DNA of 62,519 nucleotides, the filler included, from Fonticula-like sp. SCN 57-25 (Eukaryota), in the NCBI GenBank assembly GCA_001724245.1. It is 9 parts of 9 records of this genome, joined end to end, with 100 filler letters (N's around TTAATTAATTAA, not from the genome) between each part and the next. Parts side by side here need not be neighbours in the genome. Positions count along the whole stretch, not along the records: positions 55,892 to 62,519 come from MEDX01000430.1; 8 more parts are not named here. One strand, written 5' to 3'. Each line of letters starts with the position of its first letter. The first letter of the stretch is position 1. The position numbers were made by a program, and so were the translations under genes. Of the stretch, positions 5,754 to 62,519 are shown one piece after another. Under the pieces are notes generated by a model. That model searched no databases and was not told the origin of the DNA. It saw nothing but the letters and a program-made list of their open reading frames with translations.

Positions 5754-8106
5754 CTAGTACTCTGTTGATGCGGTAATGAATGCGCTTGTGATTGGCAGCG
5801 CACTCGTATCGACGCCCGTATTATACCGAATCATCCTCAGCATGACATCAGGCCTCGCATCGCCATCCACAAAGTCAAGATCATCCCCAAGCGCCTCCCT
5901 AACAACCGCCGGGAAACGATAATTCCTATAATAAAACCTGTCTGCATCCCTAATTGCTGCAAACTGCCTTGCAATCCCCGCACGAAGCAGCGGCCCCACT
6001 GGTCCATCCACGTGGTCCTCACACAGCATCCCGATCCACAGGTCGACATCATTAATGTCGCCATAGAGACTTTCCAACTTGCCAGCGAGCTCCTGATTGG
6101 ACGTAATCTGGGAAAAACTGTCCAATCGCGAAAGCCCGAGCAGCTCACGTGCGTGGTTGTAATCGGGCAGGGCGTGATCGCGGCCGCGCTGGACGTTGAT
6201 CGCGGCGAGATCGCCGCCGCCGAGGCCGCGTCCGGGCGGGCCGAATAGGAAGCTGCGGACGCCTTCGACAATGTGAATGTCAATTTCTTCGGCGTGTTGG
6301 AGAAGCATTCCTCGGAAAAGTGGGTCTAATATATATCAGTATGATAAGGGATAGACAGAATTGGAACAAGAATGACTATGGATATACAGGCATGACAGAT
6401 GAACAGATATGATACAGACAATAACATGATTACGTCATTCAGAGATAGATGAACATACAGATAGACACATACAGATGATACAGATGGACATACAGATAAA
6501 CATGATACAGATAAACATACACATAGACACGATACAGATGAAACAGATGATCATATAGATAGACATGATACAGATGGACATGACCAAGATATACATGATA
6601 CAATGATTACAATGATTACGTCTCTCACAATTCCCAATGATAATCCCACAATTCGCACCCATTCCGCCGTGCTGCTCCATCAAATGCGGCGCAAACAGCG
6701 AATCCTTCAAGTCAAGCGGCCCCTCTTGAATAGACGTCAAGTCCTCTTTCAAGGGGCAGCAATGTGTGGCCAATACGGAAAAAGGCGGTGGAGAATAAAA
6801 GGTCAATTGAGGGGTCGGCGGTGACGTCATAGCCGGGGTAGGGGGGGAGGAATGTGCCTAATAAGGAAGGTGCGAATTGCTCAAAGGTGATGTATTGCAT
6901 TTCGGCTGCGACCACGTGGCGGGCGGCATTGAAGATTTCATTGTCGGTCCAGCCCTATTAGGAGTCAGTAAAGGAAAGAAAAAGAGAGGGAGGAGGAAAG
7001 TGGCCACGTGGAGAGAAACAGAGAGAGTGATCACGTGGTTATAATAAACAGAGATAATGCCATCCACGTGGTTATAATAAACAGAGATAATGCCATCCAC
7101 GTGGACATAAACAGAAAAATACCCATGTAGATAATGGTAGACATGCCCCATGAAGGAGATAGACAAGATCCAAGAAAGCATAAAGCATAATCACCACGTG
7201 GCCCATGTTCACATCATTCCACTCACGTGACCCATATTCTTTTCCCATATCCCACGTGGCCACGTACAAGTTCCGCCGTATGTTGTGCGATGAGATCCGC
7301 CACGCGATTATGCTCCCTCACGAGCAGCGTGTGCATGGCCACCAAGTGCACATTCTCATTCACCCTAAAATCACCTGCCAAAAATAGCGACACGTTCGCA
7401 AACCGACCAATCGGAAGCGTCGGCCGCGGCTGCTCTGGCACGGCAATAAACGGGTCGGCATTTGGCATCTGCGCCGAGTTGAAAGGGAGGTTGTCGCCGG
7501 CGCTCGTCAAAAGTCGGCCGCCGGAAAAGGCGCGAATGAGCGACGCACGTGGCTCGCTGCTGCCGTAGAGGACAGAGCCGTCCATGTAGGCGGTGATGGT
7601 GTTGAGGACTTGGCGGGGGTGGTCGGCGGAGGTGCCGGTGAAGCGCGCGGGCTCGGAGCGGGTGAAGGGGATCGTCACATTGCCGAGCGAGGTCGGGTCA
7701 AGGTCCTGTAAAGATGTGAGAAGGTGGGAAAGAGATAAAACTGAACTACAAATGAACTAGAAAATGACGAAAAAATGGGCAGAGACAGACTGAAAATGAC
7801 GGAAATATCATCAAAAATGTCACCAAAAAATGACCAAAAATGACGAACTTCAACCAGAAATGCTCCAAAATGTCACAAAAAAGTACCAAAAAGCACCAAT
7901 AACAATCACTAACTCAACACCAGACCTCAATATTCGTTCGTACCGGGTCGCCAGTTGGGACCGGGATGTGCATTGTCTCGGATCCCGGGTGCCTTTCCTG
8001 GAAGAATGTGAGCTCGTGATCGACGATCTGCCCCCACATGACAGTCAAAAAGTTGATATGGTCCGCGCTCGGGATTGGCGGGCCGCTATTCTTGACAATT
8101 TCGTTG
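5754..8106 (-). CDS. Animal-type heme peroxidase (peroxidase-cyclooxygenase superfamily), 5' truncated
   Basis: MWGQIVDHE (distal His), LNTITAYMDGSVLYG, LAGDFRVNEN, REHNR, FRIGH (proximal His) and AINVQRGRDH; several introns. Confidence 0.9.
6329..6645. repeat. Low-complexity intronic repeat (GATACAGAT/AGACAT-like units)
   Basis: Repeated ACAGAT/GATACA units inside a peroxidase intron. Confidence 0.6.
7000..7267. repeat. Intronic CACGTG-containing minisatellite
   Basis: 33-bp unit CACGTGGTTATAATAAACAGAGATAATGCCATC occurs twice, plus degenerate copies; about 7 CACGTG in total. Confidence 0.7.
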
Positions 8107-8206
8107 NNNNNNNNNNNNNNNNNNNNNNNNNNNNNNNNNNNNNNNNNNNNTTAATTAATTAANNNNNNNNNNNNNNNNNNNNNNNNNNNNNNNNNNNNNN
8201 NNNNNN
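8107..8206. other. Artificial contig linker (first of eight)
   Basis: N-run + TTAATTAATTAA + N-run; also at 15159-15258, 21954-22053, 28749-28848, 35537-35636, 42299-42398, 49060-49159 and 55792-55891. Confidence 0.97.
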
Positions 8207-52448: not shown

Positions 52449-55400
52449 ATGCCAAGGAGTGCGCAAGCGACGGCGGGGCGCATGGGGCCGCCGTCACAGC
52501 AGTCCGGAGTGCATGACAAGAGGAATTTTGTGCTGCTGAAACAGCGCGTGCAGCAGAAGAAAGTTGTCCCGTTTCTGCTCAACGGGTTTTCAAGCCTGCT
52601 AATCGACCGGAATCTGTATGCGAACAAGAGTGTACCAAATCTACGCGATTCGCTGCTCTACTGTCTCAGGAGATTGGAAACGCAGTATGCCGAGTACCAT
52701 GGCTTTAGTACACGAATTGACACCCCCATCCACGATGCCAAGCACCATAGTCCACAAATTGACACTTCCAAGCACCATGCTCCACAAATTCCCACATCCG
52801 TCCACCACGGCTCTAGTACACAAATTCCCACCTCCAAGCACCATGGTCCACAAATTGCCAATTCCGTCCACAATGGCCCACAAATTCCCACCTCCATCTA
52901 CGATGATCCACAAATTGCCACTCCCATCCACCATGGTCCACAAATTCCCACTTCCATCTACGATGCCAAGGAGCAGCTGTTGATTCAACAGTTGGTTGAG
53001 AAGAAGGCAACCACCAGTCAATTGCAGGACGTGTTGTTCAGGGCGCACACGAGGGCACGCAAGAGCTGCAAACCCGGTTATTTTAAGGAGGAAATTCAGG
53101 CACAGGTGGGCTGTTGGATGACAGAGATTTCGGCGAGTGACAAGGCATCGCAATTGCTGAATGCTGGTTTGGATGAGGCATGCAACACCCTCTGTGAGAT
53201 GCACATGCAGTTCCCCTTCTTCATCAGCTTGGTGTCTGATAAATCGTTCAACAAGCGGTTAACATCCAATGGCGTTCAAGTAATATGGTTGTGTCCAGAT
53301 AGCTCATTTGAAGATACTCCACTCAGCGAACTCACTCGGGAGGATGGAGAAGAAGAAGAAGTTTGTAATAGGGAAAATGCAGGAGTGGATTGTAAAGAAT
53401 CTGAAGGTGACAGGATGATGGGCCAAGAGCATGAAGTACCAGTTTCATCATTAAAAGAACCGCCTGTGGATCAAGCAGATTCATGTCAAACTGGTGAAGC
53501 TACCAATAACATGATCATGATCTCACTCAATGGAGGAAGTGAACTGAGAATAAGACATACCAAGAAGTACTTGTTCACCAATATTCAAACCAAGATGAGC
53601 GATAAGAGTTTTGAACAGTTCCAAGTGATGATAAAATATATTGCCAATCGGTACAGTCTCCTATTCATTGGATGCTCTGATGATGAAGATGAAAATCAGA
53701 TTGCGTATAATGTGAACGCAATTGGCGAAACACCGCATCCTCACTTTGCATTTATCCCACATTCCAAGAACCCTGAAATCCATTCCCCTCGTATCAAAGT
53801 GATTCGCAATGTTTGCGTGAACCCGAGTTATGTGCACAGTCCCATGGACACAATTTCCGATTTTCTCCTGTTACTCTCAAGATCTTTCTCAGATGAGGAC
53901 TATCGATCATTTCTTGACATCAAAGATTCCTCTGTGCAGCACTCAACCTTCTTCCGTCCAGATCAACGGCACGACTATCTAGAGCTGCAGACCAAATTGG
54001 AGCAACTAGCATCGCAGATCCAGATTGCAACTGCTGACTTGACCAATGTCATCGGGAGCGAAAAATATTTTAAAGATACTATTCTTGCGGACTTGGTTTC
54101 CCGATATAGCGACATGAAATGTTTCTGCGAATGGATTTATCCGAACGGTTTTGACTCTGCCGAATATGCCAACCAAATCGTGAACAAGATGATTGCACGC
54201 AGTATGGCAATGGAGAAGAATATCAAGTCTGGCAAAGATGTCCAAATCATGTTCATCGAAGAGAACATGCGTAAAGCATTGAAAGAGAGATTGGAAATAG
54301 AAGTGGAACGGTACCGCCGTCTCTTGGAGCTCATGTTACAATTTCCGAACTTGGATGTTCGAATGATACCAAGCACCCTCTTTTCTGACAACTACGGCGC
54401 ATGTAATCGCACAGAAGAGAAGGAGAAACTGTCGTTTGGTCTGGCCAAATTTGGCGAAAATATTGCGAGCTTTTATGCAAAGACAGCAAGAGGATCGGGA
54501 CGCATCTTCCATAAGCACCTAGTCTCCATGAACACTAATGATTGTTCACAAAAGGTCAAATTATTTGCAGTACGTTTTCAACCATTCAAATTTCAACAGT
54601 AATAACAATCGAAAAAAGAAATATTGGGACAAATGCACGATAAAAAGAAAGAAAACGTTTTCACGGGTGAATAATTCGCTTCCTGAGGAGCTTCGCTTAC
54701 CGGAGGATTTGGCCAACATTGTTGGCGATCGGCCAGTGCCAGAGAAGGAGTGTTTGCTCTTTGCAAAATTGCAGCAACTCAAATGCCAGCTAATGCTTCA
54801 AGGAAGAGGGTCGAAATATGAAACGATTGGCATGAACACCACACTCGAGAACTCTTCTTCCAATGCAACACCACTCTCATTACCAGTTTCTGATTCCAAT
54901 AGTGTCACAAGATCAGGATTTGCAAGCAAATTGGAATATGCAATGTTGAAAACCAAGGAAAGTGCAAAGATTGTGTTCATCAAGCACATTTCAGTGTCTA
55001 TCGAAAACGATGAGATCCATAACAACACACTCATTAATTCGTTCCAGAAGGAGTGTGAATTTGCAAAGTTTGTGACGCTCACTTGTTACACGTGTGTATT
55101 GGCTTATTTTTTTCTGTAGGAAATGTAGAGACAATGACCTGTACAATGCAAATCTTGTGAAAATTGATGATGCATTTATTGAGAACTTGGAGATGTGTCT
55201 GGTATACGAGTATATTCGCGGGAAGAATCTTTCTGAACTCGTTCACGAAGTAAACAAGAAATACGAACAAGATAACGAGGAACCACTGCTCACAATGGAG
55301 ACCAAATTATTTATTGCATTGAACATTGCGCGAGGGCTTCGCTTCATGCATGAAGAGATGAACATGGCACATCGTGACATTAAACCTGCCAATATCATGG

Positions 55401-55791
55401 TTGGCTTGGTATGTTATTGTAACAATTGGCTTCAGTTGAGTACTTACGCAACACAAGTCTGAACCGGATGCAGAGATCACCTGTGTAAAGATTGTAGATT
55501 TGGGTGGTGCCAAGGACGAATGTGATGACAATACACTCACACTGAATGGGAAAACATTGGGCACCACAAGATATCGAACACCACCATCTATTGGCGCCAC
55601 CTATTTCACAGACGACATGTACAGCCTCAGCATGACTCTTTGGGAGTTATTTGCCGAAGAAAAGCCATTCCACGCAGAGCTTTTCCAGGTAAATGAAGCT
55701 TACACCAACTTTGATATTTCAAGCTTTTCTGCTCAGAGTGGCAGCAATAGACCTGACATCAACAAACTAGGCGAAGACTGTCCTAGTCAAG
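52449..55791 (+). CDS. Degenerate SIR2-like + DUF5753/PLD-like + protein kinase fusion (spliced, 3' truncated)
   Basis: VVPFLLNGFS..VPNL, ISLNG and LLFIGCSDD (SIR2_2-like); RLLELMLQFPNLDVRMIP..LFA|KYWDKC; kinase motifs VFIK, HRDIKPAN, VDLG and DMYSL..LWEL...PF. Predicted introns 54570-54618, 55068-55119 and 55409-55457; start uncertain. Confidence 0.65.
52726..52970 (+). repeat. About 39-bp coding tandem repeat (13-aa unit like HHGPQIPTSxxxx)
   Basis: Several imperfect copies of CCACAAATT(C/G)CCAC..CC inserted within the SIR2-like domain. Confidence 0.85.
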
Positions 55792-55891
55792 NNNNNNNNN
55801 NNNNNNNNNNNNNNNNNNNNNNNNNNNNNNNNNNNTTAATTAATTAANNNNNNNNNNNNNNNNNNNNNNNNNNNNNNNNNNNNNNNNNNNN

Positions 55892-56425
55892 AATAACTTG
55901 ATCCCCTCCTTGATCCTCATAACTCGCGATATCATTCATATATCTTTGGCGCATATCATTAATACTATCATTATCGACATTTCGCCATATTCCCCGCTGA
56001 ATCTCTTCTTCCATATGTTCCAAAATTTCCCTTCCATAATGAGCGATCTCATTACTATTCGGATCTTCAAGATAATCAGACAAAAGATCTTCGGGATACA
56101 TCTTATATTTATGGTCAAATTTGTAAGTATCAATGTTTGAATACCGTCTAGGAAAATTCGTAAAAGTTGTCATATCAGTATCTTCATAAATTGGGCTGAT
56201 AAAATACATTCTACCCCTCACAACTTCAGTAGTCATTCCTTCTAACAAATTGGGCATATTACCGCCCCGAACAGCTAAATTATTACTTGAAATAAATGTA
56301 CTCAGTCTTGCCCCGCAATCACTACACAAACCCTTTATTTGATAACTTCCATTTCTTGCTGCATTAATTTCGATTGCATTCTCATGTACTTCCTTCCTTT
56401 CTCTCAAACAGTAAAATTTGTACAT
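55892..56425 (-). CDS. DUF5679-like Zn-ribbon protein with C-terminal extension (3' truncated)
   Basis: YCLRERK...RNG..IKGLCSDCGARLSTFI followed by VRGGN. Confidence 0.7.
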
Positions 56426-56438
56426 CTTTACTTCTTTA

Positions 56439-56933
56439 TTATAGATTTAAAAAATCTTCATAGTGAAATTGTAACTCTTTAGTAACGTTAATCTCGAAAC
56501 TGTCACTATCTAAATATTCATCCCCAACAGTATCAGTATCAGAATCATCTAGTTCTACCCCAGTATCAGGGATCCTATTCATACTCTGTTCCATTAAAAA
56601 TATTCTCACAGCATTTTCGAACCCATCCATCAGCTGTTTCTTGATATCACTCTCAAAATTCATCACTGGGTAGAAGAATACAATCATAATTTGCTCGATG
56701 GTAGTATAACAATCATCCCTTCTAATGTTATGGTCATAATCATACAAGTATGCACCAGTCAATAATTTTCTGACTTCCATGAGATGATGAGGTTTCATGT
56801 GAATATTACCGCAGATAAAACCTTTTAATAATTCTGGACAAACATGCCAATGATTAAAATAGTCATTGGGGGCTTCTATCCAATCTTCGTACTTTGTACC
56901 GAATTTCTCGTCACAACGCAAATTTGAAATCAT
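56439..56933 (-). CDS. Hypothetical viral protein (acidic C-terminus)
   Basis: 164-aa ORF in tandem with the neighbouring gene; TATATAAA immediately upstream. Confidence 0.65.
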   Translation of the reverse strand: MISNLRCDEKFGTKYEDWIEAPNDYFNHWHVCPELLKGFICGNIHMKPHHLMEVRKLLTGAYLYDYDHNIRRDDCYTTIEQIMIVFFYPVMNFESDIKKQLMDGFENAVRIFLMEQSMNRIPDTGVELDDSDTDTVGDEYLDSDSFEINVTKELQFHYEDFLNL

Positions 56934-57029
56934 TGTATTTTATATATACAAAAATATTATTTTCGTAATTCATTTTTTCTTCTTGAAATTTTCTTTTTAA
57001 AACATCCTAAAGAAACAGATCCAGTAGCA

Positions 57030-57742
57030 ATGGCAAAACTCAAGTTCCAGTGTTTGAAGGAGAAGAAGTCTGTCATGGCAGAGCCTACTTCTTCTAAGGA
57101 AATGAAGAACGGGGCGCTCCATGTATCGGCAAATTGCCCGGATTGTGGTACTAAAATGTACACTTTCACGGGAAAAAAAAACTAGTTGAAGGCTCTTCAA
57201 TCCCTTCATCATCATCACTTCAAGAAGGAGAGCAAGTATATTTAGCAGTTGAGAATTTCTATGTTCCTGGAAAGGGAGTTATCAATATCAAACATCCAAA
57301 GAAGTTATCCCATAGATCTTATGATATCGTCAAACGTGGCGGAAATGTTGCCCAAGCAGTAGCAGGCGCTGTTGAGGGCTCTCTAAAAGGAGCGTCAGAT
57401 CTCACTAATTCTATTGCAAATGCTGTAAATCAAGGAAAGATAACTGATCATGAAATTAATAAAGACACCGGATATATCAATGTTCAACAAGCAGAAAATA
57501 GGAATCGTGAAGCAATTGTAAACTCAACAGGATTTAACAAATACTTCCGCGAGCTTGCGCATATTCGTTATCACGATGAGGAGCAATTACCTACAAATCT
57601 CAGACTTGGTAGGTTTGGACCTTGGTATTGGGGGGCTCCATTTTCAGCTGCGATTAATTGGGGTGTAAATGCAGAGGCAAAAAAGAGAGCTGATGATGCT
57701 CTCTATGAGTATGCAATTAAAACATATCGTGGACCTTTGTAA
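57030..57742 (+). CDS. DUF5679-like protein (51 aa, 57030-57185) with -1 frame extension to 57742
   Basis: MAKLKFQCLKEKK..MKNGALHVSANCPDCGTKMYTFTGKKN*; the -1 frame is open from 57155 to 57742 with no ATG; junction G GGA AAA AAA AAC TAG. Confidence 0.75.
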
Positions 57743-57847
57743 CATAGTTATAAAGTGTCTACATTGTGACCTTTGTAAACTACGTTTATAAAGTGTCTAC
57801 ATTGTGTCCTTTGTAACATAGTTATAAAGTGTCAACATTGTGTCCTT
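57732..57847. repeat. Three tandem 36-38-bp hairpin-forming repeats
   Basis: G(A/T)CCTTTGTAAC-ATA-GTTATAAAGTGTC(T/A)ACATTGT three times; the middle copy is CTTTGTAAAC-TAC-GTTTATAAAG. Confidence 0.9.
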
Positions 57848-57858
57848 CTTTTTCATTC

Positions 57859-57882
57859 TTTATTCATAAATTTATGAATAAA
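57859..57882. terminator. Perfect 24-bp palindrome between convergent genes
   Basis: TTTATTCATAAATTTATGAATAAA equals its own reverse complement. Confidence 0.6.
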
Positions 57883-57917
57883 ATATCTCATTACTCCCTC
57901 TCTCCGTTTGTAGATTG

Positions 57918-58364
57918 TTAATCCTTCGTAGGATACATTTTATCAACGATAATCTCCTGTTTCGGCTCAGGGATTTCAGCCTCTTCTAGAATATCCTTAG
58001 TTTTCTCAATCTTCCTCTCACGCTCAAGTTCCTTCTTAATATCGCGAGGAGCGCAACCTGATAATGTCATTGTCTTAATTCGAGTAATCTCATTATCAAT
58101 CATATAATCGTAAATCAGACTCTTCAAAGTTTCCTCCTTTTCCTTGAGTTCGGCATAATGATGCTTGACTCGAAACTCTTGAATTCCAATATTTACCTCC
58201 TTTATATCAGCTCGAACATTCTTTAACTCATCAATTACATCGTCTATATCAATATCAACCTTTGAAGATTTATCGCTTTGTGAACCTTTTGATGTAGTCT
58301 TCTCTAGAGAAACCTTGACCAGATCTTCCTTGATGAAGCCCGGAGTTAAACGAGTGGGTGTCAT
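57918..58364 (-). CDS. Coiled-coil viral protein, possibly DUF5760-like
   Basis: ELKEKEETLKSLIYDYMIDNEI pattern; overlaps the ATPase 3' end. Confidence 0.55.
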   Translation of the reverse strand: MTPTRLTPGFIKEDLVKVSLEKTTSKGSQSDKSSKVDIDIDDVIDELKNVRADIKEVNIGIQEFRVKHHYAELKEKEETLKSLIYDYMIDNEITRIKTMTLSGCAPRDIKKELERERKIEKTKDILEEAEIPEPKQEIIVDKMYPTKD

Positions 58365-59100
58365 TTAGATCGATTGGTTCGTCAAAATTCTTTCTTAAAT
58401 AGAGTTTGTTTCCCTCGTTGTTCTTGTCAATAAACAAGAAATTATTAATTTCCTCTGGTTGCCCCGGTGTTTTCTCGATAGCGTAATTATACGCGCGAAC
58501 AAAATCGTTTAATTCAACGGTAGAACCGATCTGGCGGTAGATTTGTCCTAATCTTTCTCTCGTTATCCCTTTATATAAAATAAAATAATTTGATTGTTCA
58601 CGAATAATTTTTGGTGTGTTAAAAAATGCCTGTGCGAGATAAACAACGGCGCAATTCTGAGGTCTGGAGCGAATAAAATAATCAGTCATTACTGCATTGT
58701 TACTATCAGTCATGAAATCGTCAATAATAATCAAATTTTGTTTATCCGCGTCATACTCTTCAACTTTCAACATTTCAGATATACTTTCTCCAATATATGA
58801 AATACTCTCACCTATATTTTCTTCCACTTGAGCGATTGAATCCAATAAATCTTCATAGACCGGTTGATTAATATTTTTAGCGTAAATACTAATTGTATCG
58901 AATGATAACATCCCAATCAGTGACATCAACATAAAAGTCTTACCGCTGCCTGTATTTCCAATAACAGTAAGCCTAAATGGTCCATTCTTTGTAAATTGTG
59001 GAACTGAGTTATTTTTATTGCGGAATTTCCTCGTATTCTTAGTTTGTACGTGTAAAATCGGTGCTTTATCTAAAACCATCGTTTTATTCTTGGAACTCAT
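58270..59100 (-). CDS. A32-like (FtsK/HerA) genome packaging ATPase
   Basis: Walker A RLTVIGNTGSGKT, Walker B LIIIDDF, RSRPQN.AVVYLAQ and PKIIREQSNYFILY. Confidence 0.92.
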   Translation of the reverse strand: MSSKNKTMVLDKAPILHVQTKNTRKFRNKNNSVPQFTKNGPFRLTVIGNTGSGKTFMLMSLIGMLSFDTISIYAKNINQPVYEDLLDSIAQVEENIGESISYIGESISEMLKVEEYDADKQNLIIIDDFMTDSNNAVMTDYFIRSRPQNCAVVYLAQAFFNTPKIIREQSNYFILYKGITRERLGQIYRQIGSTVELNDFVRAYNYAIEKTPGQPEEINNFLFIDKNNEGNKLYLRKNFDEPIDLNDTHSFNSGLHQGRSGQGFSREDYIKRFTKR

Positions 59101-59158
59101 GATGAATCTCTTTTAATGAGAAAGAAAAAATTAATTATAAGATATTAAAAGTGTTAAC

Positions 59159-61384
59159 ATGGATATCAGATCAATATATCGAGCTCCCTATGATCGCGAT
59201 AGAAGTACTAATTGGAATTCAATATCTGATGAAGCTGAGGCTCTCGATTCCATTGTTGAATCCATGGAATCTATCGCTCTTGCAAACAAGGGTATTATTA
59301 AGCGAACAAAACAAGTTGGAAAAGATTACAAGTTAGACCCTTCAACTAATTTTACTCGCAACAGACAGTTATCTAGGCTCATTCTTCGCTTCAAAGATTC
59401 AAAAACTCCGGAAGCGATCAGAATTTATTCATTTCTTATAAATTTGGCTGCTTATGAAGCAAATGTTGCCAGTAAGGTTAAGAGTAATTTTAACCTGATC
59501 AGTAATTTAAGAGAAGATGCTGACGATGTTGATACTATGTTTACTAGCATCATCAACGCTCTGATGGCTGAAAGTCAAGAAATGATAGATTTTCTTGAAG
59601 AAAATGATATCTCCTATGAGGAGGGATTCATTCCAACCACAATTGGTAAACTTTTACAACCAAATTCAAAGCAAGCTTATGATAATAGTTTAAAGGCAAT
59701 TCTCGACGCGATCGAAATAATCGCTCCATTTATCCCTGGTGATCGAGTTAATGAACTGAATCGGGAAGATGTTTTACATAAAAATATGAATGAAATGAAA
59801 GGTTTCGTTAACAATTTGATCAATCAAATCGCTGCACTCCCACAAGCTAATGATCATAAGCAATCTCTCGAAATTCTTCTACAAATTGAAGATGCAATTC
59901 TTAAGGGCAATCTGGATTTAGAAGCAATGAAGACTTTCGTTAGATTGTTACCTGCAAATTTCAAACCTCTCAAGGACTTAATTGAAAAGGGTCTCGATAA
60001 AAAGGATATTGAACAATTGGTTGATGAGCAGCAAGGTTTACCCTCTTATCTAACAAAGGACGAGAATGATAAAATTTTTGTTGATGTTAATGATTTTATA
60101 AACCAGTTATACGGTCAAGTTTCCGGTTCATCAAAGGATGATACTATAAATTCAGATCTACTAGAACAAGTCAATGAAAACCCAAAGGTCAGGTATTTCG
60201 GAAATGTTGCTAATAATAAAGCGCGTGAACACTTAAAAATACTCTTTGTGATTGGTGATGAAAATCCTTACACATTACAAGATAGAGAAGGATACTTAGT
60301 TTATCAAGTTACAAAAGATAGTGATCTTGATAAATTACTAACACTTGATATTTCCAAAATAGACAGTCTAACAACTGAAGCAATTGAGCAATATCTCAGA
60401 TTAATTGAATATACAGGGCTTACATTTAAGGATGGATCAGAAGCTCAAAACAAAATTAACACTTTGAAAGAGATTCTTAACCCCCCACCAAAGAAAGATA
60501 TCGAAGAAGTTGAGGATATCGAAGAAGTACAGGAGGAACCAAAGGAGGAACCAAAGGAGGAACCAAAGGAGGAATCCGTTGATGAAGGCTCTTCTTCAAA
60601 GAATGAATACGATTTGAGCGGTTCTTCGGAACATATCAAAACTATATTAAAGGATTTTTCCTCACAAAAAATATTTGCAGACACATTAAGAGATATTGGG
60701 GGTAATATAACAGTACTTGGTCAACCAGCCAAGCTTGAGAAACAACTATTTTTACATCCTCGGGATAATACCGGTGATTTTTTAGTTTTAAGAAATATCG
60801 ACGGTGATATCGTTTTTGATGATATACCCAGAACATCAGCACTTCAAGCGATGTTGGAATTACCACCTGTTCAGATTGAATCATTCATTGATCAAATATC
60901 AATTGACGATGTTGATAATTTTAAGAAAATTATGGAAACGGCAGGGGTTGGTGATACTTTAAAGGTAAAGTATGTTAGGGGGATTAGAAAACTCAAGGAA
61001 GAACCACCACAAACTCCAATTTCTAAAGAATCAACTCCCCAATCTGACGAATTCTTTACACCACAACTAGAAATACCACAAACTCCCTCGAAGAAATCGA
61101 AGCGTAAATCAAAAAAGAGTGGTAAGGGATTGTTATATACAGAACTACGCGATCAAGAGGCTAAACTAGGAAATACTAGTAGACTTGCTAAAAAGCAGGC
61201 TCAACTTGTTCGATCCAAACAAACAATTGATTTTTCAAAACTGGCTAAACTTGGTATTCCTCTGAGTGTTCCAAACGCTCCCAAATTGTCACTTGCAAAG
61301 TTGAAAAATATATCTATGAATGGAAGAACCGCAAATCAGCGAAATATAGCTTTAGATGAGATTGAAAGACGTTCTAGATTGTAA
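59159..61384 (+). CDS. Large hypothetical viral protein (741 aa), possible core/structural protein
   Basis: Long ORF with an EEPK repeat and basic KKSKRKSKKSGKGLL near the C-terminus. Confidence 0.75.
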   Translation: MDIRSIYRAPYDRDRSTNWNSISDEAEALDSIVESMESIALANKGIIKRTKQVGKDYKLDPSTNFTRNRQLSRLILRFKDSKTPEAIRIYSFLINLAAYEANVASKVKSNFNLISNLREDADDVDTMFTSIINALMAESQEMIDFLEENDISYEEGFIPTTIGKLLQPNSKQAYDNSLKAILDAIEIIAPFIPGDRVNELNREDVLHKNMNEMKGFVNNLINQIAALPQANDHKQSLEILLQIEDAILKGNLDLEAMKTFVRLLPANFKPLKDLIEKGLDKKDIEQLVDEQQGLPSYLTKDENDKIFVDVNDFINQLYGQVSGSSKDDTINSDLLEQVNENPKVRYFGNVANNKAREHLKILFVIGDENPYTLQDREGYLVYQVTKDSDLDKLLTLDISKIDSLTTEAIEQYLRLIEYTGLTFKDGSEAQNKINTLKEILNPPPKKDIEEVEDIEEVQEEPKEEPKEEPKEESVDEGSSSKNEYDLSGSSEHIKTILKDFSSQKIFADTLRDIGGNITVLGQPAKLEKQLFLHPRDNTGDFLVLRNIDGDIVFDDIPRTSALQAMLELPPVQIESFIDQISIDDVDNFKKIMETAGVGDTLKVKYVRGIRKLKEEPPQTPISKESTPQSDEFFTPQLEIPQTPSKKSKRKSKKSGKGLLYTELRDQEAKLGNTSRLAKKQAQLVRSKQTIDFSKLAKLGIPLSVPNAPKLSLAKLKNISMNGRTANQRNIALDEIERRSRL

Positions 61385-61418
61385 CTAACGCTATTTTTTT
61401 TTAATAATTATTAAAAGA

Positions 61419-62252
61419 ATGGCTAATCTTTTCTTATCATCGTCAAAAGCAGAGAATGGAGCAAAGGGTAATGATTTTACGACAAGATTCCAAGTTCCCC
61501 TATCTTTTCCAGGTGGAGCAGAGAGATTCGAAGTTTATGCTGTAAAAGGGACGGCGATTAATTCTATCTTTAATATTGAAGCGCAGTATAATAACAATTT
61601 GCTAGCATATTACAATGGTTCAGTCTGGAAGGATGTTACATATCCGGATGGATCCTTTCCAATTCAAGATATAAATGAATATTTGCAAAGAGTTATGAAA
61701 ACTAACAATGATTATTTACCTCGTGATCCCGATGATCCAACCTCTGAGGATCAATTTTATATTGATATTGAGGGTGATTATAATCAGGGTATTGTCAGAG
61801 TGACAGTTTCGAATGATTATCAACTGGATTTCACAAAGTCAGATTTAAATTTCTTACTCGGATTTACAAAGAAGATTGTTACTGTTACTGAAAACAGTAC
61901 TTTACCAGTTGATATTAATCGTGGTGTCCAGTCCCTCTATGTTCACTGTGACATGACCAATTCGTCAGTGGTAGGATCCTCAACCTCCGGCGATGTTATC
62001 CTGGAATTCACATTTGCATTTACTGGACCGTCTTCATTATGCGATTTAACGCAAATTGTACCGCAACCCTTCGATCTAAAAGCGGATGTCATCAACTCGG
62101 TTCGCATTTGGATATCAGATCAGCGAGGACGCCCCGTAGATTTTAACGGTGAGGATTTCACGATTCAATTGTTAGTTAGAGAAAAACCCGGATATAAGCT
62201 ACAAAAGATTATTGAAGCGCTTGAAAAACAACAGGCTCTATCTAGACGCTAA
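61419..62252 (+). CDS. Minor capsid protein (penton, single jelly-roll) of Polinton/PLV type
   Basis: NDFTTRFQVPLSF, FNI...NN, PDGSF..DIN, LLGF, LYVHCD and INSVRIWISDQRGRPVDFNGE. Confidence 0.8.
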   Translation: MANLFLSSSKAENGAKGNDFTTRFQVPLSFPGGAERFEVYAVKGTAINSIFNIEAQYNNNLLAYYNGSVWKDVTYPDGSFPIQDINEYLQRVMKTNNDYLPRDPDDPTSEDQFYIDIEGDYNQGIVRVTVSNDYQLDFTKSDLNFLLGFTKKIVTVTENSTLPVDINRGVQSLYVHCDMTNSSVVGSSTSGDVILEFTFAFTGPSSLCDLTQIVPQPFDLKADVINSVRIWISDQRGRPVDFNGEDFTIQLLVREKPGYKLQKIIEALEKQQALSRR

Positions 62253-62299
62253 TGTTTTTCAAAGTAATTTTTTTTATCAATTATAAAGGTTTGTCAAAA

Positions 62300-62519
62300 A
62301 TGAGAGCTCTTAAAGATCCGAAGCATTTGAAGTATCGTATTCCCGGGTATACTGGAAGTACTCGGCATATTTTATCGTCACTTGAAAAATTTAAAAATCC
62401 CCCCACAGAATTAGAGGTAGAATATGATGCTTCTCTAATGTCAGATGCGGGTAATGAACCCCTTTATCCAAATAATACTACATCATTTGATCATTCCAAG
62501 GGTCCCGCTCCATTAAGTG
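62300..62519 (+). CDS. Truncated ORF downstream of penton (unknown product)
   Basis: ATG in an AAAAATG context, open to the window end: MRALKDPKHLKYRIPGYTGS... Confidence 0.55.
   Translation, partial: MRALKDPKHLKYRIPGYTGSTRHILSSLEKFKNPPTELEVEYDASLMSDAGNEPLYPNNTTSFDHSKGPAPLS

Follow-up and report, generated by a model that had tools for sequence, protein, structure and literature searches.

The stretch of DNA analysed here (62 519 nucleotides (nt), hereafter the window) comes from assembly GCA_001724245.1 of Fonticula-like sp. SCN 57-25 and consists of some nine contigs joined end to end. The last of them (MEDX01000430.1, positions 55892–62519) is a 6.6-kb fragment of a virus-like element, and on it one gene is divided between two overlapping reading frames: a short open reading frame (ORF) for a DUF5679 zinc ribbon ends just behind a run of nine adenines (A9), and a long ORF that has no methionine codon follows in the −1 frame. 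An earlier note, made from the sequence alone, had proposed a programmed −1 ribosomal frameshift at this place. The features of the gene are as follows.

57030–57185, plus strand: zero-frame ORF of 51 amino acids (aa), a DUF5679 zinc ribbon (CxxC...CxxC; Pfam PF18930), with its ATG at 57030 and a TAG end
57155–57742, plus strand: −1 frame ORF of 195 codons without methionine, bounded by TAA at 57152–57154 and TAA at 57740–57742
57170–57182, plus strand: slip-prone tract GGGAAAAAAAAAC, with GGG at 57170–57172 and A9 at 57173–57181
57183–57185, plus strand: zero-frame stop TAG, directly 3′ of the last slippery heptamer
57182–57319, plus strand: 46-codon linker, read in the −1 frame, not conserved in relatives, with a coding signature in its codon usage
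57185–57207, plus strand: two mutually exclusive weak hairpins, one at 57185–57201 (−3.9 kcal/mol), the other pairing 57187–57192 with 57202–57207 (−5.7 kcal/mol)
57320–57739, plus strand: conserved C-terminal domain (C domain), mostly helical, without a Pfam family, recognised by phmmer and in alignment A2

The 51-aa ORF matches PF18930 over profile positions 2–40 of 40 (E 2.3e-7, 31.3 bits, gathering cut-off 27), and the last profile position falls on residue 46 of 51, still in frame 0. Its 3′ end reads ACG (57168) GGA AAA AAA AAC TAG. The two in-phase X_XXY_YYZ heptamers that had been pointed out there, G_GGA_AAA (57170) and A_AAA_AAC (57176), are borne out on the sequence, as are the ribbon ORF, its 3′ sequence and the 195-codon extent of the methionine-free −1 frame; a third in-phase heptamer, A_AAA_AAA, begins at 57173. 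That the heptamers are in phase is uninformative, since every A run of at least seven gives an in-phase heptamer in each frame. The two frames overlap by 31 nt (57155–57185), and the heptamers lie within this overlap. Within the coding sequence of the contig, no A or T run of at least seven occurs other than A9 and a T8 run at 62268.

The base composition of the contig, in which stops make up ~7.0% of random triplets, gives a 195-codon open frame a chance of ~8e-7. A codon-usage score trained on the contig's other genes assigns +4.2 bits to the ribbon in frame 0, +15.2 bits to the linker in the −1 frame (the remaining frames score −13.2 and −11.9) and +54.2 bits to the C domain in the −1 frame; the coding signature moves to the −1 frame immediately after the tract. 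The linker is open for all of its 46 codons back to the tract (chance of openness ~0.04 at contig composition), and the whole 186-codon continuation contains no stops and no further indels. Reading TAG as a sense codon was considered and rejected: frame 0 would then continue without homology and with several TAA and TAG codons and one TGA, and the conserved domain lies in the −1 frame. The −1 ORF is genuine coding sequence under constraint, and the gene is truly split.

An exhaustive phmmer search with the −1 product recovered 11 proteins at E ≤ 1e-3, two at ≤ 1e-10 and one at ≤ 1e-30; the best relative, P0044 (232 aa), is 54% identical (E 2.6e-37). Four related loci (L002–L005) were matched by tblastn at E 2e-21 to 5e-12. 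In the window the C domain carries the motif RGGN...IANAV.QG...F.KYFRELAHIRYHD..LP..LRL.RFG...KKRADDALYEYA. Alignment A2 (11 sequences) contains a conserved block that runs from (K/R)GGN to ...RADxALYxYA and follows the pattern GGN...RYHDPE.LPP.LRL..FG...RAD.ALY.YA, with R138, L151, A179 and L183 invariant. Behind the (K/R)GGN motif stands an Ala/Gly/Val-rich stretch.

The N-terminal modules vary across this family, which includes DUF5679 ribbons, an NPW(L/I)xHV-type module and a short CxxC motif. Two relatives, P0046 (178 aa, DUF5679 score 26.5 bits) and P0049 (161 aa, 34.7 bits; encoded at 5815–6300 of L005), are ATG-started fusions of DUF5679 and the C domain in one frame. Judging from these proteins, the combination of DUF5679 and C domain is a natural single polypeptide, and the strongest argument for treating the two ORFs of the window as a single gene comes from such naturally occurring fusions. 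It had been suggested in the earlier note that one gene yields both a free ribbon and a fusion. That the two halves belong together stands, and so does a length of 237 aa; that the fusion is produced, and by which route, we infer. The idea that P0044 is itself a degenerate ribbon fusion was dropped, as the 51-aa ORF has no similarity to the P0044 N-terminus.

Searches of other kinds gave little. The −1 product has no Pfam match, and a word-based protein search returned 103 candidates for it, none significant, and no candidate for the 51-aa ORF; these negative outcomes are due to the limited reach of the word index, because the exhaustive phmmer search did find relatives. Scans of viral contigs with the −1 product, the packaging ATPase described below and alignment A2 detected no relatives, nor did a scan of genome contigs with alignment A3. 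In an AlphaFold model based on 11 sequences (mean pLDDT 59), residues 1–83 fall below 50, the linker is disordered, and helices are placed at 80–140 and 170–192, of which the C-terminal helices alone are confident. Foldseek against BFVD gave no matches at E ≤ 0.001, the ESM Atlas offered no usable match, and PHROGs held nothing for the −1 product. The best hit of a PDB profile search (E 0.31, to haemagglutinin HA2 helices) was treated as a chance match.

The −1 ORF might also be expressed without the ribbon, by non-AUG initiation or through the splicing of a short intron that would take the end of the ribbon ORF with it. The C domain can do without a ribbon, since eight of the ten related proteins have other N-terminal modules, and 21 formal GT...AG intervals would link the frames without a stop. 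However, all 21 candidate introns cut into the DUF5679 domain, the −1 frame holds no ATG, CTG, GTG, TTG or ACG codon ahead of the conserved domain, its open stretch begins precisely at the overlap with the ribbon ORF, and the contig's other genes are all long uninterrupted ORFs. We regard such separate expression as quite improbable.

Contigs from public sequencing runs were compared with 55892–62519. Two data sets, X2 and X3, gave identical figures, look like one data set and are counted once. The contigs that cover the tract, and a segment in which one of them departs from the window, are as follows.

56399–57448: contig from X1, depth 11.4, two differences from the window, no gaps
55892–57506: contig from X2 (= X3), depth 6.1, five differences from the window, no gaps
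56311–60626 (window positions): L001, a 4316-nt contig of another assembly, 23 substitutions, no gaps
57550–57691, plus strand: 142 nt containing all 16 of the L001 differences that fall in the −1 ORF, 11% divergent against 0.17% elsewhere; probable recombination tract

The sequence GGGA9C TAG is identical in L001, and A9 is without indel in the X1 and X2/X3 contigs as well. The differences from the window sit at different positions in each source, which makes four distinct haplotypes with A9, the window included; some of these data sets are possibly the window's own source. The carriers come from few studies (X1 and X2 belong to one), with run dates from 2015 to 2017, and no RNA run is listed among them. 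The tract is real, because four mutually different haplotype assemblies carry it without a gap. Homopolymers are the usual sites of error, and X1 or L001 may derive from the window's sample; yet all four assemblies, which differ elsewhere, have nine A's, two of the four are k-mer-based contigs, and the run contigs show no indels relative to the window anywhere in 55892–62519. The homopolymer sequencing error that had been entertained from the sequence alone, with the true gene in a single frame, is thus very unlikely: as a sequencing or assembly artefact the A9 run can practically be set aside.

Of the 23 differences between the window and L001, 16 lie within the −1 ORF, and every one of them is synonymous in the −1 frame (15 third-position changes and one TTA to CTA). 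Read in the other two frames, the same changes would be synonymous in only one and three cases; against a neutral synonymous expectation of 22–32%, 16 of 16 gives P ≤ 1.5e-8. Six of the seven differences outside the −1 ORF are synonymous as well, and the element is therefore an evolving, selected virus and not a decaying copy. Between the window and the X2/X3 haplotype there are 38 differences in 60545–62118 (2.4%), as opposed to five in 55892–57506, and a minor X2/X3 contig covering 57588–57777 has nine letters that differ from the window, a range that includes nine of the 16 L001 differences. The X2/X3 difference pattern, together with the 142-nt tract at 57550–57691, points to a mosaic, recombining virus population.

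On balance, we consider it probable that the split gene is decoded by slippage at the tract to give the full protein. Standard decoding would yield a free 51-aa DUF5679 zinc-ribbon protein, and a one-base backward slip on GGGA9C (57170–57182) would join the ribbon to the 186-codon continuation, in a fusion of 237 aa (51 plus 186 codons, from the coordinates) made up of the ribbon, a linker of ~46 residues and the conserved helical domain. On a tract of this kind two routes are to be expected on physical grounds. The nine A's could cause RNA polymerase to stutter, leaving a fraction of the mRNAs one A longer; in mammalian cells, RNA polymerase II restores the reading frame on runs of A8–A9. Alternatively, ribosomes could shift by −1 on A_AAA_AAC or G_GGA_AAA right before the TAG. 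The fusion is most likely still made, because the tract is real, the −1 frame encodes a conserved domain and the downstream frame is constrained. Polymerase slippage, a tentative choice, is placed slightly ahead of the ribosomal shift, which we hold to be a little more doubtful, because the run exceeds the length that a ribosomal site requires and weak structure follows it; the two routes are not separable from these data. In the accessible part of PMC5009743, runs of nine A or T are described as places where bacterial polymerase slips efficiently, human TGFBR2 and ATRX are mentioned as cases of slippage, and A_AAA_AAC as well as G_GGA_AAA are named among the shiftiest heptamer types for mammalian ribosomes; A9 has the length that is given there for polymerase slippage, an A or T run of about nine or longer. 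Whichever the route, this layout appears young and lineage-specific, and a tolerated or compensated indel that has been turned to use is a more likely origin than an old, conserved signal.

Several results weigh against this proposal, and the first of them concern RNA structure. The hairpin that the earlier note had seen, GUUGAAG-GCU-CUUCAAU at 57185–57201, does exist, but at −3.9 kcal/mol it is probably too weak for a stimulator. The best local fold is the other hairpin (−5.7 kcal/mol), which is equalled or bettered by 5 of 200 shuffles, and the fold of a 131-nt stretch is unremarkable (z −0.94); the folding covered hairpins only. A scan of 56900–57900 against Rfam gave no match and thus no frameshift element. 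These results bear also on classical programmed −1 ribosomal frameshifting alone, the special case of slippage in which an evolved heptamer and hairpin would fix the proportion of the 51-aa to the 237-aa product. For such a signal speak three heptamers in phase, of which two belong to types on which eukaryotic ribosomes shift very readily (PMC5009743, in the part available), the zero-frame stop directly behind them, a frame overlap centred on the site and a local hairpin somewhat better than shuffled sequence. Its hairpins are weak, however, only 2 nt separate the last heptamer from the one at 57185–57201, the larger fold does not stand out, the heptamer phase is no evidence, and the site is kept in none of the four related loci. 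As a canonical, conserved −1 signal the tract failed the conservation test and did not clearly pass the structure test, and we judge classical frameshifting on its own to be improbable.

The comparison with relatives tells in the same direction. None of the four related loci is split: each has an uninterrupted, ATG-started ORF (289 aa in L002, 153 aa in L003, 190 aa in L004 and 161 aa in L005), and the ten related database proteins likewise begin with an in-frame methionine and are unsplit. Homologs that are all in one frame and lack a conserved heptamer were the outcome named beforehand as speaking against a frameshift, but this conservation test is weak, the nearest relative being only 54% identical. 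Elsewhere on the contig, A runs of at least six number three against 6.7 expected, an avoidance that is not significant (P 0.054) and gives the tract no special standing in this genome. Across every haplotype seen, 57030–57549 is identical, and this lack of variation around the tract may mean that the break is young. The 16 synonymous changes were probably imported by recombination; given the invariance of 57030–57549 and the position of these changes in an apparent recombination tract, the constraint may have acted in an unsplit ancestor, before the break. Finally, a 151-nt contig from the soil metagenome X4 fits 57173–57320 with three other letters, and its last three letters mismatch the GGG ahead of the A run; since the alignment stops right at the run's 5′ edge, this hints that the shift site may vary among close relatives. 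Only small shares of sequence words were found in X4 (soil, represented by four short pieces) and X5 (bovine), and no conclusion about habitat is drawn from them.

These points lead to the most serious competing explanation, a recent, uncompensated one-base frameshift, in which the bioreactor lineage has lost the fusion and makes the 51-aa ribbon alone. The intact downstream ORF would then mean a young event or repeated import by recombination, and the function might be covered by a second gene ~600 nt away:

55892–56425, minus strand: DUF5679 + RGGN paralog in one frame, its 3′ end lost at the contig end

Its zinc ribbon is related to that of the 51-aa ORF (E 3e-11) and scores 26.7 bits against DUF5679, just below the cut-off of 27. 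The paralog had been cited as a one-frame copy of the same layout; this holds for DUF5679 and RGGN, but the extension has no detectable similarity to the −1 product (E 0.6). That non-homology argues against a knockout made good by the paralog. For a knockout one can cite the unsplit state of all relatives, the tendency of homopolymers to gain and lose bases, which makes a break at A9 look like mutation, the invariance of 57030–57549 in all haplotypes, which fits a recent origin, the placing of the synonymous differences within the probable recombination tract, the second DUF5679 + RGGN gene close by and the small number of studies from which the carriers come. Against it, the broken allele is the sole assembled allele in four distinct haplotypes over runs from 2015 to 2017, and it has persisted through recombination, as two different haplotypes are joined to it downstream; the domain is very strongly constrained (16 synonymous and no nonsynonymous differences), the rest of the element is under purifying selection (six of seven differences synonymous), and 186 codons remain without stops or further indels. 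A plain loss of the fusion is, in our judgement, a possibility to be kept in mind but an unlikely one, and slippage at the tract is preferred.

The contig as a whole bears on what the fusion might do. Its G+C content is 35%, against 50–63% for most of the remaining window, and all of its other genes are long uninterrupted ORFs, one of which encodes a packaging protein:

58270–59100, minus strand: A32-type packaging ATPase (Pfam PF04665, E 2.2e-10; score 40.9 bits, cut-off 22.8)

The 41 ATPase relatives listed stand on contigs of ~19–25 kb or of Mb scale. No Ulp1/adenain-like protease, integrase or protein-primed polymerase was found on the 6.6-kb fragment, and ORFs 59159–61384, 61419–62252 and 62252–62518 gave no Pfam capsid match. 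In the more distant relative L005, which has the same C-domain gene, a Ulp1-like Peptidase_C48 protease (E 1.2e-5) and an rve integrase (E 9.5e-13) are encoded along with an A32 ATPase. Polinton-like or virophage-like element is a reasonable label for 55892–62519, because of the ATPase on the contig and of the protease, ATPase and integrase in L005. DUF5679 is among the domains present in more than one-third of mavirus-related elements, according to the portion of PMC13215967 that was available.

In the relatives, the C-domain genes lie at 298–759 (L003), 665–1237 (L004) and 5815–6300 (L005), and directly before each of them is a gene for a small Gly-rich protein with an Arg/Lys tail (L003 3–275, L004 425–616, L005 5523–5786). 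With tails that read RRRRVRRRRG, GGRRRRSRK and GYGKKKYKK, it resembles a DNA-condensing core protein. Just upstream of the small gene, L004 and L005 have the ATPase gene. As the small basic-tailed gene and the ATPase gene adjoin the C-domain gene, the gene order suggests that the C-domain protein belongs to a virion or packaging module.

A bolder version of the preferred slippage reading, which we put forward tentatively, is that a Polinton-like or virophage-like virus of a microbial eukaryote deliberately slips at GGGA9C to obtain two proteins. An abundant free ribbon would then be accompanied by a rarer, ribbon-linked virion or packaging protein, whose GGN motif could be cut by a Ulp1-like protease such as that of the relatives, and the tract would represent the first recoding event to be described for these viruses, at a stage shortly after it arose from an unsplit ancestor. 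The cleavage consensus of adenain-type proteases is (M/I/L)XGG-X; the residues ahead of GGN in alignment A2 show no consistent fit to it, and GGN as a protease site is speculation.

RNA viruses, retroelements, phages and insertion sequence (IS) elements offer many familiar examples of recoding, by ribosomal frameshifting or by a slipping polymerase, and several systems invite comparison with the window gene, whose layout works in the manner of phage G/GT, retroviral gag-pol or Thermus dnaX-type A9 sites. The G/GT genes of phages share with it a place in the structural or packaging neighbourhood of a double-stranded DNA (dsDNA) virus, and a short zero-frame product next to a C-terminally extended −1 fusion, the shift taking place on a heptamer of the form G_GGA_AAN or A_AAA_AAN close to where the short ORF ends. 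In contrast to the window gene, split in none of four related loci, the phage frameshift is conserved across very distant phages; moreover, the proteins are unrelated, and the host of the window element is presumably a eukaryote. Closer in mechanism to a stuttering polymerase are dnaX of Thermus thermophilus and bacterial IS elements, in which a coding run of nine A's yields two products (PMC5009743, accessible part); there, however, the enzyme is bacterial RNA polymerase, and slippage in dnaX gives the shorter product, whereas in the window it would give the longer one.

In evolutionary status, the nearest case is the 'savior' indel in the thymidine kinase gene of herpes simplex virus, also a homopolymer indel in a eukaryotic dsDNA virus, where slippage provides a little full-length product and the site is lineage-specific and not conserved (PMC5009743, in what could be consulted of it). 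That indel was selected by a drug and affects a G7 or G8 run, whereas the broken allele in the window dominates natural populations. The A_AAA_AAC and U_UUA_AAC sites of retroviruses and coronaviruses, as given in the same portion of PMC5009743, offer a heptamer of the same type in phase and overlapping zero and −1 ORFs, but they have a stable pseudoknot or stem-loop 5–9 nt downstream and are conserved; in the window, weak hairpins and no conservation of the site were found. For Polinton-like viruses and virophages no described recoding event was found in the literature searched, the nearest being a computational suggestion, in the accessible part of PMC11071296, of a −1 frameshift that gives an alternative C-terminus to the adintovirus Penton, within the polinton/adenovirus-related assemblage. 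In that text it concerns a different gene and a KnotInFrame prediction alone, whereas the −1 frame of the window encodes a conserved domain with constraint at population level.

If the fusion is made, the tract would be a young recoding site with unsplit relatives at hand, useful for the study of how such sites arise from homopolymer indels. Whichever explanation holds, a 195-codon ORF without methionine has been missed by gene callers, and it belongs to a conserved family that has no Pfam model and stands beside a packaging ATPase in related elements.

Some further observations concern the remainder of the contig and of the window. The ATPase ORF, at 276 aa, extends ~35–45 aa beyond its relatives (225–262 aa in most of the 41 listed), and its 3′ end (58270–58364) overlaps the start of the next minus-strand ORF (57918–58364) by 95 nt. 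For the ORF at 61419–62252, a comparison with PDB sequences gave no match. The EEPK repeats of the 741-aa ORF are encoded by two in-frame tandem repeats at 60497–60574 (18 nt × 2.1 and 12 nt × 3.7). Another tandem repeat, of 36 nt (57734–57847, 3.1 copies, 87% matches, consensus CCTTTGTAACATAGTTATAAAGTGTCTACATTGTGT), begins in the final codons of the −1 ORF and spans the gap to the next gene, and the X2/X3 contigs break there. The joins in the window are marked by eight copies of the six-frame-stop linker TTAATTAATTAA, flanked by runs of N, at 8151, 15203, 21998, 28793, 35581, 42343, 49104 and 55836; their spacing is ~6.8 kb, and the joined contigs are apparently ordered by length. The genes on either side of a linker, such as the kinase-like ORFs at 55094–55847, are unrelated to the virus-like contig.

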